This document shows, one piece after another, positions 46,383 to 63,910 of a DNA stretch of 64,000 nucleotides. The position numbers and the translations under genes are program-made. This stretch comes from Parcubacteria group bacterium Gr01-1014_38 (lineage in GTDB: Bacteria; Patescibacteriota; Andersenbacteria; UBA10190; CAIZMI01): positions 122,835-186,834 of the forward strand of contig VMFP01000001.1 of NCBI GenBank assembly GCA_007376145.1, written 5' to 3'. The notes beneath the pieces were generated by a model. It was not told the DNA's origin and ran no database searches. It saw only the letters and a program-made list of their open reading frames with translations. How positions within the stretch are numbered: the first letter of the stretch is position 1; the number at the start of each line of letters is the position of its first letter.

Positions 46383-47531
46383 CTACCGTAGAAATCCCGA
46401 CTGGGAAACTATCCGCACCTCGCGTCGTTGCCAGGTGTTCCAGGCGTCCGCCACGAATGCGCGGATCCCCTGACGGAAGCGCTCCGCCGCGAATCGTGCG
46501 GCGTGGGCGCGAATGGTCTCTCGGTCGTACGAACCTTCGTTCTCCAAGAAGCGCCGGACGCAGTCCGCCAGCAGTTCTTCGATGGGCGCGTCAAAGAATT
46601 CGCCGGTGATTCCCTCGACGACAGTTTCGGTGGCTCCGCCGCGGCGCAGTGCGAGCACCGGCGTTCCCTGCGCCATCGCTTCAATGGGAACCAGTCCAAA
46701 GTCATCATCGCTTGGGAACAGTACCGCCCGCGCTCCGGCGTACAGCGCCACGAGTTCTTCATCAGGGACGAACCCGCGGAACGATATCGTCGGGCCCTGC
46801 AGGCGTCGCACCGTCGTCGCCTCCCGTCCCTCGCCGACCACGACGAGGGGAAGTTCGAGCTTATTGAAGGTATCGAGGACGACACGCACGCCTTTGTACG
46901 GCGACAGGCGGCTCACGAAGAGAAAGTACCGCCGAGGGTCGGATTCGCCTTGGGCGGCACGCGGGGTAAGCGGCTGGCTGAGCGGTGGCGGGAGCACTGC
47001 GGCTTCGCGCCGGTAGTACTTTTGAATCCCCGCCCTGGTGGTTTCGGAATTCGCGAGGAAGAGATCCACGCGGCGCGCCGCTGCCCGGTCCCACAGGCGC
47101 AGTCCGTGCATGAGCGTCTGGAAGAGTCCGCGACGGATCGTCCCCGAAGGGAATTCCTCCAGCAGCTCGTGGTACGCATCCCAGAGGAAGCGCGTCGGCG
47201 AGTGGCAGTAGCAAATGTGGAGCGTTCCGGGACGGGTGACGATCCCCTTCGCGAATCCTGACGCGCTGCTCACCACGACGTCGTACGCGGAGAGATCGAA
47301 CGTTTCCGCCGCGATCGGGAAGAGCGGAAGGTGCGCCCTGGACCGCCGGAGGACGCGCGGGAGTCCCTGGAGGAACGAGGTGGTGAGTTTCTCTGGTGGG
47401 AGGAACGGGGCGCGGAGCCGCGTTTCAAGAGTGTAGACCGGTGCGCCCGGAAATGCCGCGATGAGTTCCACGAGGACGCGCTCCGCACCCCCGAGCGTGG
47501 TGAGAGACTCGTGGACGAGCGCCAGCTGCAT
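46383..47531 (-). CDS. GT4 family glycosyltransferase
   Basis: GT-B fold with the C-terminal E-x7-E region (FGLVPIEAMAQGTPVL). Directly downstream of mreB and upstream of secA. Confidence 0.7.
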   Translation of the reverse strand: MQLALVHESLTTLGGAERVLVELIAAFPGAPVYTLETRLRAPFLPPEKLTTSFLQGLPRVLRRSRAHLPLFPIAAETFDLSAYDVVVSSASGFAKGIVTRPGTLHICYCHSPTRFLWDAYHELLEEFPSGTIRRGLFQTLMHGLRLWDRAAARRVDLFLANSETTRAGIQKYYRREAAVLPPPLSQPLTPRAAQGESDPRRYFLFVSRLSPYKGVRVVLDTFNKLELPLVVVGEGREATTVRRLQGPTISFRGFVPDEELVALYAGARAVLFPSDDDFGLVPIEAMAQGTPVLALRRGGATETVVEGITGEFFDAPIEELLADCVRRFLENEGSYDRETIRAHAARFAAERFRQGIRAFVADAWNTWQRREVRIVSQSGFLR

Positions 47532-47537
47532 GTGCGC

Positions 47538-61649: not shown

Positions 61650-61660
61650 CGGGGTCTTGG

Positions 61661-63910
61661 CTACTCCCGCCCACCGCGCGACTCGACTGAGCTCGTCGAA
61701 GTCCGGCGGAGAATCGTAATGGGGTTCCCGAGATTTTCGATTTCGGCGATGGGTTCGAACTCCGCGTTCACGAACTGTTCAATCTCGGGGTACTCCCGGA
61801 AGTAGGAAAAGGCGGTCAGCTGCTCATGGACCACCCACCGAATGTCCGAGCGGACGGCGGCGACCATCGCTTCTACGGGCGCCATGTAGATGTTGCGAAC
61901 CTGCGGCTCGATATAGCCGTAGGCGTAGTGGGTCGGGTGGGCGACGTCAAACAAGACCCGGTGCCCGGAGAGTACGGGAAGAGCGACGGCAGCCGTGAGG
62001 ATGGGCTCTTCCTTTGGAACCTGGCGTCGGAGAACCGCCGCGGCTTCCTCCAGCGACGAACGGTCGAATGTTCCGGTATGCGCGAAGACGTATCCGGAAC
62101 GAGCCGAGGCGTACGCGCCCCACGCCACGAGTACTCCGAGGAGAACCAGGACGGGAGCGCGGCGCCGGTACTCGGCGGCAAGCCAGGCGCCTCCGAGCGC
62201 AGCGAGGAGGGTGAGCGGCGGGAGAAACTCCGCGAGGTAGTTCGCAGTAAACTTAATCCACGAGGCGTAGAGGACCGTGGTTCCCAAGAGCCAGAGGAGC
62301 GGAACACCGACAGCAGGCAGGATTGTCTTCCGTAATGCCGGAACCTCCTCCTCTGGGCTCGGGGCCTGTTCTCGTGAGGAGACAGCAAGGATGGCGATGC
62401 TTGCGCTCATCACGAGCCAGAACGGCCAGAGGGCAAACGCGAAGTGCTCCGGACGCTCGTACGCTTGAAGGAAGCGACCAGAGAACCAGACCGCGGCCAG
62501 CGGGATGAGCCATCCCACGCGCGACCAGCGTCGGCCCCGCGCGGTGGAACGGAGAATCTGCTCCATGCTTGCGCCAAGACCGACGAGCGCAAGGAACAAC
62601 ACTGGCAGTCCCTCACGGAAGATCGGGAGCACTCCCTGAATAAGGGCGCGTCGGCGCTCTTCGGCAGTCGCGGTCGTGTCTGGATCGATTGCCGCGACGT
62701 CGACCCCAAGGAAGTACCGGACACCGGGCGTTCCGTACCAGTGCTGGATTTCCGCCGTGAGTCCGCCAAAGGCAATGAGAAATCCCACGAGCGTCCAGCC
62801 GACGCGTTGGAGGCGTGCGCGCCACGGGAGCGTCGAGAAGAGCAGAATCCCCAGAGCGGGGAGCGCGGCCGCGGCGGATGTCTTTCGTGCGCCGAACGCG
62901 AGTGCCAAGAGGACGCCGGCAAGGACGAGGAGCACCCACCCAAGGATCCTCCGCCGCGCTCGGTTCTCTTGAGGATTCACCAGACTGTGCGCGAACAACG
63001 CCAACCCGCCGGCGAGGAGCAAGAGTTGGAGCGGTTGCGCATGAAGGTAGATGCTGAAAATCACCGGAGCAGCAGGAAGGAGCCACAGACCGGCGATGCG
63101 CAGCGATGGGAGGCCTTTTCCATGAGCATTGCGGCCCAGCGCGAGCAGAGGAAGAAGCGTGAGAAGACTCGCGACGATGCTCACGAGCCGACTCGTGAGC
63201 ATCGTCGGTTCGGGCTTGAGACGGAGAAAGGCGGCGACGACCTGAACCACCGTCGGGGTTTTTAAGATTCCATCTCCTCCCGGGAGCCGTCCGTGAGAGA
63301 ACGTCCACGCGTCGTAGAGCATGCTCCCCTCGTCGTTGGTGACGGGTAAACGTTCGGCATACAGGAGACGGAAGAAGAACCCGCCGAGGAGAAGCACCGC
63401 AAGCATGAAAAGGAGCACCGGCCGGCGGACCCGAGGGCGGATCATCGGGGGGGCTCCTACGGCTGCCAGCGCGAGAGCGACTGCCGCTCCGCCGGTCAGC
63501 GAGAAGACGGTGACGCGCCGCGTTTCTTTGCGCATGAATCGCACGGCGTCGAGGACTGCGAGACGCACGCGTTCCCCGAGCGAGATGCGATGCACGACCG
63601 CAAAGGCGAGATCGGCGCTCCGCATCTCCGCTTGCTGAACGGCCTCGGGCGCATTCCGCTCTCCGTGGAATACGTAGAGGCTGGAGGGTCCGCCTTTCAC
63701 GTATGGATTTCCTGCACTGAAATCAACGGTGATCGCGTCTCCCGGTCGAGACTGCGGAGAGCGGAGCGACGCGTAATAGGTCTGCCCCGAGGAGTCCAGG
63801 ACTGGCGCAAACGTGAACGTGTACCATTCGTGGTCCCGGAACTGGCGGGCCGGAACGCGAGCCGTTCGGAGTGCGGTGGGAGCATCGGGACTGCGGCGCA
63901 GCTCAAACAC
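61661..63910 (-). CDS. GT-C fold ArnT/PMT-like glycosyltransferase paralog; 5' end unresolved (frame open to the window edge)
   Basis: The listed start is GTG. The reading frame continues with no stop to position 64000. The first ~150 aa resemble the C-terminal soluble domain of the paralogs. The TM core begins near MIRPRVRRPVLLFMLAVLLL and carries VTNDEGSML (DE loop-1 motif). Confidence 0.45.
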   Translation of the reverse strand: MFELRRSPDAPTALRTARVPARQFRDHEWYTFTFAPVLDSSGQTYYASLRSPQSRPGDAITVDFSAGNPYVKGGPSSLYVFHGERNAPEAVQQAEMRSADLAFAVVHRISLGERVRLAVLDAVRFMRKETRRVTVFSLTGGAAVALALAAVGAPPMIRPRVRRPVLLFMLAVLLLGGFFFRLLYAERLPVTNDEGSMLYDAWTFSHGRLPGGDGILKTPTVVQVVAAFLRLKPEPTMLTSRLVSIVASLLTLLPLLALGRNAHGKGLPSLRIAGLWLLPAAPVIFSIYLHAQPLQLLLLAGGLALFAHSLVNPQENRARRRILGWVLLVLAGVLLALAFGARKTSAAAALPALGILLFSTLPWRARLQRVGWTLVGFLIAFGGLTAEIQHWYGTPGVRYFLGVDVAAIDPDTTATAEERRRALIQGVLPIFREGLPVLFLALVGLGASMEQILRSTARGRRWSRVGWLIPLAAVWFSGRFLQAYERPEHFAFALWPFWLVMSASIAILAVSSREQAPSPEEEVPALRKTILPAVGVPLLWLLGTTVLYASWIKFTANYLAEFLPPLTLLAALGGAWLAAEYRRRAPVLVLLGVLVAWGAYASARSGYVFAHTGTFDRSSLEEAAAVLRRQVPKEEPILTAAVALPVLSGHRVLFDVAHPTHYAYGYIEPQVRNIYMAPVEAMVAAVRSDIRWVVHEQLTAFSYFREYPEIEQFVNAEFEPIAEIENLGNPITILRRTSTSSVESRGGRE

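Follow-up and report, generated by a model that had tools for sequence, protein, structure and literature searches.

The genome of Parcubacteria group bacterium Gr01-1014_38, an uncultivated groundwater member of the Candidate Phyla Radiation (CPR), carries a large glycosylation locus, which we studied in a stretch of 64,000 nucleotides (‘the window’; contig VMFP01000001.1, positions 122,835 to 186,834) and in its continuation on a second contig. The locus is well supported as a two-compartment glycan assembly line, in which GT4 glycosyltransferases should work inside the cell, a GT2 enzyme probably makes the lipid-linked donor, and four GT-C membrane enzymes should act outside. The evidence consists of observed gene content, protein folds, conserved motifs, a membrane topology that fits the positive-inside rule, and conserved synteny. 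An earlier reading made from the DNA letters alone (the sequence-only reading) had called this an envelope glycosylation locus, a designation that our analysis supports. Tentatively, and with a confidence slightly short of even, we take the product to be a lipid- or wall-anchored glycan built by this assembly line, and we lean towards such an acceptor over protein O-glycosylation.

Layout and conservation of the locus

Within the window, the locus covers about 14 kb, with the last GT4 gene at one end and the window boundary at the other; it extends at least 7.6 kb further, making at least 21 kb of conserved DNA. The part beyond was read from a 245.5-kb metagenome contig (ENA ERZ27284378, k139_493458; L001 hereafter), which contains the same DNA in reverse orientation and extends 7.6 kb past the window end (window position = 71650 − L001 position). 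On the minus strand, the genes run in the order o12, o11, an 816-nt gap, o10, and o9, followed by the GT4 genes o8, o7, o6, and o5. Beyond o5 lie a PEGA/beta-propeller gene that converges on it, then mreB, a fifth GT4 gene, and secA. In window coordinates, starting from the upstream end, these features are:

61661–64000, minus strand: o12, divergent GT-C, cut by the window end (full gene 838 aa, L001 7473–9989)
59664–61649, minus strand: o11, PMT_2-type GT-C, 661 aa (PMT_2 E = 9.7e-13, 49.1 bits, above cut-off)
58848–59663, no strand: gene-free spacer between o11 and o10, 816 nt, no credible open reading frame (ORF)
56826–58847, minus strand: o10, PMT_2/PMT-type GT-C, 673 aa (PMT_2 E = 1.9e-7, PMT E = 8.8e-6, both above cut-offs)
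54763–56823, minus strand: o9, GT-C, 686 aa, of a family without a Pfam model (G-G-D motif, profile and fold evidence)
53576–54766, minus strand: o8, GT4 of the GT-B fold (Glycos_transf_1 E = 1.6e-39)
52422–53579, minus strand: o7, GT4 (Glycos_transf_1 E = 1.1e-35)
51298–52425, minus strand: o6, GT4 (Glycos_transf_1 E = 5.3e-32)
50042–51298, minus strand: o5, GT4, final gene of the run (Glycos_transf_1 E = 2e-30)
48624–50045, plus strand: PEGA-domain membrane-anchored protein, probable beta-propeller, 473 aa (PEGA PF08308 E = 4.4e-12, weak PD40)
47538–48548, minus strand: mreB (MreB_Mbl E = 8.7e-126, 419.6 bits)
46383–47531, minus strand: GT4 adjoining mreB (Glycos_transf_1 E = 3.1e-26)
43715–46366, minus strand: secA (all SecA domains found with Pfam)

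Reading of the junctions found 4-nt ATGA overlaps at o9/o8, o8/o7, and o7/o6, and a 1-nt overlap (TGATG) at o6/o5, so that every junction from o9 through o5 overlaps by 1 or 4 nt, as expected from the earlier proposal of a translationally coupled GT4 run. The spacing is 2 nt between o10 and o9 and 11 nt between o12 and o11. Likewise as described before, mreB is followed after 6 nt by a GT4 gene and, 16 nt further on, by secA, while the PEGA gene diverges from mreB (75-nt spacer) and converges on o5, the two 3′ ends overlapping by 4 nt. Pfam searches and these junctions thus place the listed genes where the sequence-only reading had put them, with two corrections: secA, which it had counted within 46383–63910, lies outside that interval, and the ORF listed at 61661–63910 has no upstream stop and runs off the window, the o12 start codon lying ~177 nt past base 64000. 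Since orthologues of the locus genes occur at 45–80% identity on other contigs, the genes are real.

The run of genes is interrupted between o11 and o10 by the gene-free gap at 58848–59663. This spacer falls in a segment of lower GC content (0.59 for 58001–60000) and contains a GC-rich hairpin directly 3′ of the o11 stop codon, a 32-nt palindrome at 59212–59243, and three short direct-repeat pairs (aaagagagcaaatgcc, tgggaacgacaatg, and catattcatgaggtt). It has no Rfam match, no protein remnant detectable by blastx, and no similarity to the corresponding spacers of related loci, which measure from 40 nt to about 630 nt at this position; promoter and terminator scans of the region gave results at chance level. 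The spacer probably splits the locus into two transcription units.

Scanning species-representative genomes with the o9 family and mapping the hits by blastp yielded 13 loci, all in CPR bins carrying the label Andersenbacteria/Anderseniibacteriota or the generic one ‘uncultured Candidatus Saccharibacteria’, or unclassified. Twelve CPR loci besides this one, all distinct, retain the core of o9 with homologues of o8, o7, o6, and usually o5, which is present wherever a locus reaches far enough (L016 ends within o9), and this constancy argues that o9 acts on GT4 products. As far as the contigs reach, loci L002–L007, from closer relatives, share the order GT2, GT4, epimerase, o12, (o11), o10, o9, and GT4 run, continuing with the PEGA gene, mreB, (an extra GT4), the mreB-adjacent GT4, and secA. 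Orthologues of o10 occur throughout L002–L007; o11 is restricted to the three closest genomes, being found in L002 and L003 and absent from L005, L006, and L007. Most of the more distant loci have a short GT2 gene just upstream of o9, usually divergently transcribed.

The surroundings of the cassette vary among CPR genomes. Some copies are flanked by genes for a GT9 heptosyltransferase, a TagF-like glycerophosphotransferase, a polysaccharide deacetylase, and a YfhO-like GT-C (L015 16716–21968, L012 15288–17513). The flanking GT9 passes the NCBIfam cut-off for heptosyltransferase II; CPR bacteria are not known to make lipopolysaccharide (LPS), and LPS-type heptosyltransferases are hence unexpected. 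In L005 (~1100–1400) and L006 (~1970–2270), the C-terminal end of a MurB-like gene, recognized by eye, precedes a small peptide and the GT2; if MurB is confirmed, the locus in these genomes abuts a peptidoglycan precursor gene instead of rhamnose/heptose genes.

Four GT-C enzymes and their extracytoplasmic domains

All four proteins (o9, o10, o11, and o12) have a polytopic membrane core of the GT-C fold, so the earlier count of at least three GT-C paralogs rises to four, the 686-aa polytopic protein o9 being a GT-C itself. Their proposed likeness to ArnT and PMT is borne out by the o10/o11-family profile, which aligns to residues 109–392 of ArnT (5ezm; E = 5e-7), a PMT_2/ArnT-type core of ~550 aa, and more weakly to fungal PMT, Pmt1, Pmt2, the PMT structure 9i5k, and ALG12. 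Single-sequence searches of the PDB with o9, o11, and o12 returned nothing; the family profile alone reached ArnT/PMT. In Pfam, o10 narrowly passes the PMT model (PF02366; 25.9 bits vs. a cut-off of 22.7), o11 stays below it (18.8 bits), and o12 and o9 have no match. None of the four proteins matches PMT_4TMC (PF16192) or MIR at E ≤ 0.1, none matches YfhO (PF09586), and neither Pfam nor NCBIfam assigns a family to o9 or o12.

An acidic motif in the first loop, which follows the first membrane helix of the core directly, is conserved in all three family alignments that cover the four enzymes. It reads T-x-D-E in at least 32 of 35 o10/o11-family sequences, with D-E retained in every listed variant and T-A-D-E in both o10 and o11; T-N-D-E in 14/14 members of the o12 family; and G-G-D in 20/20 members of the o9 family. 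On alignment, the D-E pair of the o10/o11 family coincides with the W-D-E of yeast Pmt2. The motif probably lies outside the membrane, to judge by hydropathy and by the positive charge of the N-termini (the positive-inside rule). Profile searches gave no credible assignment to a transporter family, the sole match being a sub-threshold CitMHS hit for o12 (17.4 vs. 31.9 bits). With the acidic motif conserved and no credible transporter match, the GT-C assignment stands.

The idea of a paralog expansion applies to part of the set. It holds for o10 and o11, which are true paralogs with 31% identical residues over about 640 aa. o12 has the beta-domain in common with these two and, weakly, the N-terminal GT-C module, and o9 comes from a different GT-C family. 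The domain order differs between o10/o11 and o12. o11 consists of the GT-C core, a C-terminal alpha/beta domain, and then a beta-sandwich, and o10 ends in the same beta-sandwich; this extra domain makes both proteins ~110–120 aa longer than the ArnT-type core. In o12, an N-terminal membrane helix is followed by an extracytoplasmic beta-sandwich, the polytopic GT-C core, and a C-terminal alpha/beta domain. A C-terminal extracytoplasmic domain had previously been ascribed to each paralog; the beta-domain is C-terminal in o10 and o11 and N-terminal in o12.

The shared beta-domain spans ~160 residues (C-terminal in o10/o11 vs. N-terminal in o12: blastp E = 8e-19; hhalign 99.7%) and is extracytoplasmic in both arrangements, judged by hydropathy and the positive-inside rule. 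No Pfam model describes it. A hidden Markov model of the domain finds o10, o11, and o12 and none of 16 more distant PMT_2 homologues (0/16), which suggests that, as far as sampled, it is clade-specific. A clade-specific beta-sandwich thus appears to have moved between the ends of GT-C proteins, which is a noteworthy new point. That the domain in o12 might instead be the end of an additional, fifth GT-C lying upstream and joined to it in frame was considered and rejected, since the full contig revealed a single 838-aa gene with an N-terminal membrane helix ahead of the domain. Beta-sandwich modules are present on all four GT-Cs, and in two modelled proteins they resemble carbohydrate-binding modules (CBMs).

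In o9, the invariant G-G-D motif in the first loop is combined with a periplasmic alpha/beta domain and a CBM35/CBM6-like beta-sandwich, and no homology was detected between its C-terminal domains and either the beta-domain or the alpha/beta domains found in o10, o11, and o12. Residue D50 is invariant in 41/41 diverse family members. The family profile recovers 6,640 cluster representatives at E ≤ 1e-3, 2,203 of them at E ≤ 1e-10, and a few of the 41 diverse members have weak, sub-threshold matches to DUF2079, YfhO (17–19 bits vs. a cut-off of 28.5), PTPS_related, PMT_2, DUF6541, and DUF6044. Distant members keep glycosyltransferase company: GtrA, a GT2, an epimerase, a GtrB-like GT2, and two GT4 genes in L017; a GT4 in L019; and a PMT_2 GT-C, GT2 and GT4 genes, and Wzx flippases in L020. 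The o9 family, very large, not described in Pfam, and with fixed GT4 partners, is a further noteworthy point.

Proposed sugar donors, acceptor, and product

All five GT4s of the window score above the Glycos_transf_1 cut-off (92–136 vs. 26.4 bits) and have N-terminal GT4 domains; o6 and o7 are 37% identical, and a PDB search with the mreB-adjacent GT4 gives generic GT4 matches only. GT4 enzymes are retaining Leloir transferases of the GT-B fold that use nucleotide sugars. The suggestion that they supply lipid-linked sugar donors goes against this enzymology, and the likely source of such donors is instead a GT2 of 342 aa with two C-terminal membrane helices, encoded 2.4 kb beyond the window end (L001 4268–5296) and located at the corresponding upstream site in L002, L005, and L006. 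Its best NCBIfam matches are ArnC (E = 4.7e-46) and PgfS (E = 2.3e-44; 152 bits vs. a cut-off of 500), both below their cut-offs. Circumstantially, an ArnC/GtrB/PgfS-like GT2 in the cluster suggests that the GT-Cs use polyprenyl-phosphate-linked sugar donors. Directly before the GT2, four genomes encode a conserved single-helix peptide of 31–32 residues (MKLAITKEYIPF...; L001 4082–4180, L002 6539–6634, L005, and L006), which may be a membrane subunit or activator of the GT2.

Beyond the window, the region upstream of o12 encodes an NAD-dependent epimerase/dehydratase and then a further GT4 (35% identical to o8). Farther upstream, past the GT2 and the peptide, follow HldC, an insertion sequence (IS) transposase, GmhB, GmhA, and RmlD (above the NCBIfam cut-off), and L002 has an uninterrupted set of RmlB (above cut-off), RmlD, GmhA, an HldA-like kinase, GmhB, HldC, and an RmlA-like enzyme. 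Because these pathway genes adjoin the cluster, dTDP-rhamnose and ADP-heptose are plausible building blocks. In the window genome, an rve_3 transposase lies between GmhB and HldC (L001 1164–4071 vs. L002 3010–6542), and the HldA-like kinase and RmlA-like genes of L002 are missing at the corresponding position; given this insertion and these missing genes, the ADP-heptose pathway may be interrupted in this organism, or other parts of the genome may complete it. A second IS-type transposase (rve, rve_3, and HTH_32; window 18503–19558, minus strand) is 30% identical to that in the cluster.

From these components we infer the donors, the order of steps, the acceptor, and the product as follows. 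Inside the cell, the four coupled GT4s would build a short oligosaccharide on a membrane lipid from nucleotide sugars, together with a fifth encoded upstream, beyond the window, where the dTDP-rhamnose and ADP-heptose pathway genes also lie. The ArnC/GtrB/PgfS-like GT2 would load single sugars onto polyprenyl phosphate. Outside, the four GT-Cs, each with a catalytic aspartate in the first extracytoplasmic loop and a beta-sandwich module, would extend the chain into a lipoglycan or a secondary wall polymer, by the logic of phosphatidylinositol mannoside (PIM), lipomannan (LM), and lipoarabinomannan (LAM) synthesis or of side-chain addition to Gram-positive wall polymers.

A glycan acceptor is favored by the CBM-like beta-sandwich modules in the two modelled GT-Cs, the obligate tie of o9 to the GT4 run, the TagF-like, GT9, deacetylase, and YfhO-like genes beside the cassette in other CPR genomes, and the absence of PMT_4TMC and MIR modules from the GT-Cs. 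No phosphoglycosyl transferase was found in or near the cassette in any of 20 loci, which fits a glycolipid primer as in PIM/LM synthesis. When the window was scanned for Ser/Thr-rich proteins, the hits were all out-of-frame artefacts, a weak negative. The data do not justify the preference of the sequence-only reading for protein O-glycosylation or S-layer assembly over a teichoic-type or lipoglycan polymer.

An alternative is protein O-glycosylation as in Pgf/PMT systems, which we regard as possible, if rather doubtful. The GT2 would make a polyprenyl-phosphate sugar, and the GT-Cs would transfer it to Ser/Thr residues of secreted or membrane-anchored proteins (an S-layer, pili, or the PEGA protein), with paralogs serving different acceptors or successive sugars and the GT4s acting separately or in priming. 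The Pgf GT-Cs of Streptococcus mutans add sugars to Ser/Thr-rich regions on the outer side of the membrane (bioRxiv 10.1101/2024.05.05.592596). The order GT2–epimerase–GT-C in the CPR locus resembles S. mutans pgfS, pgfM1, pgfE, and pgfM2, the closest likeness in gene set for that part; o10 and o11 are PMT_2/PMT members with the PMT-type D-E motif, the GT2 matches PgfS (E = 2.3e-44), and the PEGA gene and secA are neighbors. However, PMT_4TMC and MIR domains are absent from the GT-Cs, none of which reaches the YfhO model, the window encodes no Ser/Thr-rich protein and the PEGA protein has no such tract, and a different direction is indicated both by the CBM-like modules and by the wall-polymer genes found close to distant cassettes. 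Moreover, single-sugar protein glycosylation does not explain why o9 is always coupled to three or four GT4s.

Several points weigh against a lipid- or wall-anchored glycan. The match of the GT2 to PgfS, a protein glycosylation enzyme, is about as good as that to ArnC, and o10 passes the Pfam PMT threshold. No GT4 reaches an NCBIfam equivalog cut-off, all matches falling far below, so that specificity is not readable from these sequences. The locus contains no flippase, polymerase, ABC exporter, LCP ligase, or initiating transferase, so that the model has a gap where the product made inside would have to reach the enzymes outside. Clustering does not prove a common target of the GT4s and the three PMT_2-type GT-Cs, and the hairpin-bearing 816-nt spacer separates o11 and o12 from o10 and the later genes. 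Searches of the literature on glycosylation and GT-C enzymes in CPR/Patescibacteria found nothing relevant, and no lipoglycan or wall polymer of this kind turned up; the literature on the cell envelope and MreB was uninformative.

A candidate initiating enzyme is encoded elsewhere in the window:

31097–32101, minus strand: WecA/TagO-like polyprenyl-phosphate N-acetylglucosamine-1-phosphate transferase, 334 aa (PF00953 E = 2e-27)

Its NCBIfam scores favor wecA (E = 2.6e-22) over mraY (E = 4.7e-11), both below cut-offs, and a membrane GT2 of 579 aa (Glyco_trans_2_3) lies directly upstream, the two forming a module at 31097–33866 (minus strand), 12 kb from the locus. It may act separately or as an initiating glycan module and could prime a polyprenyl-pyrophosphate-linked glycan. 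Near the cassette in the other loci examined, no homologue of the WecA-like protein (within 10 kb) or of the 579-aa GT2 was found, and nothing ties the module to the locus.

The module bears on a different role for o9, that of an en-bloc, oligosaccharyltransferase-like ligase, which would move a GT4-built polyprenyl (pyro)phosphate oligosaccharide after flipping, with o10–o12 adding single sugars. Such a role would suit the only GT-C always linked to the GT4 run, the Wzx-type flippases beside its distant relative in L020, and the WecA-like enzyme 12 kb away, and it is suggested by the top fold matches of o9, although the fold does not discriminate. We consider it unlikely, since no WWDxG-like motif was seen by eye in the o9 periplasmic domain or in the conserved family columns, relatives lie beside GtrA/GtrB-like genes typical of single-sugar transfer (L017), and no CPR copy of the cassette has an initiating transferase or flippase. 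Similarly slim chances attach to the most specific version of the lipid-anchored glycan, a mycobacterium-like CPR lipoglycan in which the GT4s would act directly on a membrane lipid without a phosphoglycosyl transferase, followed outside by o9 and by clade-specific PMT_2 enzymes with a glycan-binding beta-sandwich that complete the polymer, the whole positioned by MreB by way of the kept PEGA–mreB–GT4 neighborhood.

Gene neighborhood and relation to known systems

Three other loci, L003, L005, and L006, likewise have mreB followed by an orthologue of the mreB-adjacent GT4 of the window, with MreB proteins 64–90% identical, and in all three the PEGA gene lies between the GT4 run and mreB. secA follows that GT4 in L005 and L006; in L003 an RNA polymerase gene stands there instead. 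L005 and L006 have an extra GT4 inserted near mreB. One explanation is a functional coupling to MreB and SecA, in which glycan assembly would be organized spatially by MreB and export coupled to Sec. The short gaps (6 nt from mreB to the GT4, 16 nt from there to secA), the mreB–GT4 order, and the kept position of the PEGA gene speak for it; the replacement of secA in L003, the GT4 insertion in L005 and L006, the origin of the genomes from a single lineage, the absence of mreB from the 3–10-kb flanks of the distant cassettes L008–L015, and the lack of any sequence sign of physical interaction speak against it. We judge such a coupling improbable. Because all these genomes belong to one lineage, shared ancestry explains the mreB–GT4 gene order, and secA appears to be simply a neighbor, with nothing tying it to the pathway.

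Other parts of the window drew attention independently of the locus. Positions 22001–26000 have a lower GC content (0.53–0.56 vs. about 0.61 elsewhere) and encode an FGE-sulfatase-like protein, a short-chain dehydrogenase, a dual-specificity phosphatase, and a PQQ/beta-propeller protein; this segment may be acquired DNA. A solitary RnfD/NqrB-like membrane protein (42792–43730, minus strand; PF03116 E = 1e-11) is encoded by a listed ORF that overlaps the secA 3′ end by 16 nt, and no genes for other Rnf/Nqr subunits were seen in the window. Between a helicase-nuclease gene and secA lie two ORFs with no Pfam match, 37778–39082 (minus strand, 434 aa) and 40550–42427 (minus strand, 625 aa).

Among known systems, the PIM–LM–LAM and arabinogalactan pathways of mycobacteria and corynebacteria offer the same division of labor, with GT4s inside, a polyprenyl-phosphate-sugar synthase, and several GT-Cs outside. 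The set comprises the GT4s PimA and PimB, the GT2 Ppm1 (polyprenyl-phosphate mannose), and many GT-Cs such as PimE, MptA-C, EmbC, and AftA-D. In these pathways, too, an initiating phosphoglycosyl transferase is not needed, and the GT-Cs have extra beta-sandwich/CBM-like modules. Unlike them, the CPR locus has matches at the level of fold or superfamily, not sequence-level orthology; it belongs to a CPR bacterium, not an actinobacterium; its sugars, to go by neighboring genes, are probably rhamnose or heptose, not mannose or arabinose; and its genes are tightly clustered, whereas mycobacterial PIM/LM/LAM genes are scattered in the genome.

The S. mutans Pgf system (PgfS, PgfE, PgfM1, and PgfM2) similarly clusters a GT2, an epimerase, and multiple GT-Cs with an outward catalytic motif, but the CPR locus has four GT-Cs and five or six GT4s, the latter absent from Pgf, and no Ser/Thr-rich acceptor nearby. 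Likeness to ArnT (GT83) and PMT (GT39) lies in the PMT_2 matches of o10/o11, the profile alignment to 5ezm, and the aligned D-E motif, and difference in the absence of PMT_4TMC/MIR and in the extra C-terminal beta-sandwich. No homologues of arnA, arnB, arnD, arnE, or arnF occur in the window or L001, and no lipid A/LPS genes were seen in the 64-kb window; an ArnT substrate is not expected, as CPR bacteria are not known to make LPS. In the GtrA/GtrB/GtrC, CsbB/YfhO, and GacI/GacL systems, a polyprenyl-phosphate-sugar synthase is likewise paired with an outside GT-C that decorates a polymer, and distant o9-family members share this context, lying beside GtrA and a GtrB-like GT2 (L017) or having sub-threshold similarity to YfhO, PTPS_related, and DUF6044. 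The CPR locus differs in having no GtrA-like flippase, an o9 that matches none of those Pfam models, and four GT-Cs, not one.

The enzyme classes and the two-compartment logic of the locus are thus already known, and by itself it opens no new kind of biology; what is noteworthy is the occurrence of four tandem GT-C genes in a bacterial group with small genomes. CPR/Patescibacteria account for much of bacterial diversity. Most of them are believed to live in attachment to other cells and, with tiny genomes of typically ~1 Mb, to depend on hosts for lipids; we know of almost nothing established about their surface chemistry. If the genome is ~1 Mb, the locus would represent a large investment. 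It provides a concrete candidate for an outer-glycan pathway in these bacteria and gives context to an unannotated GT-C family of thousands of members.

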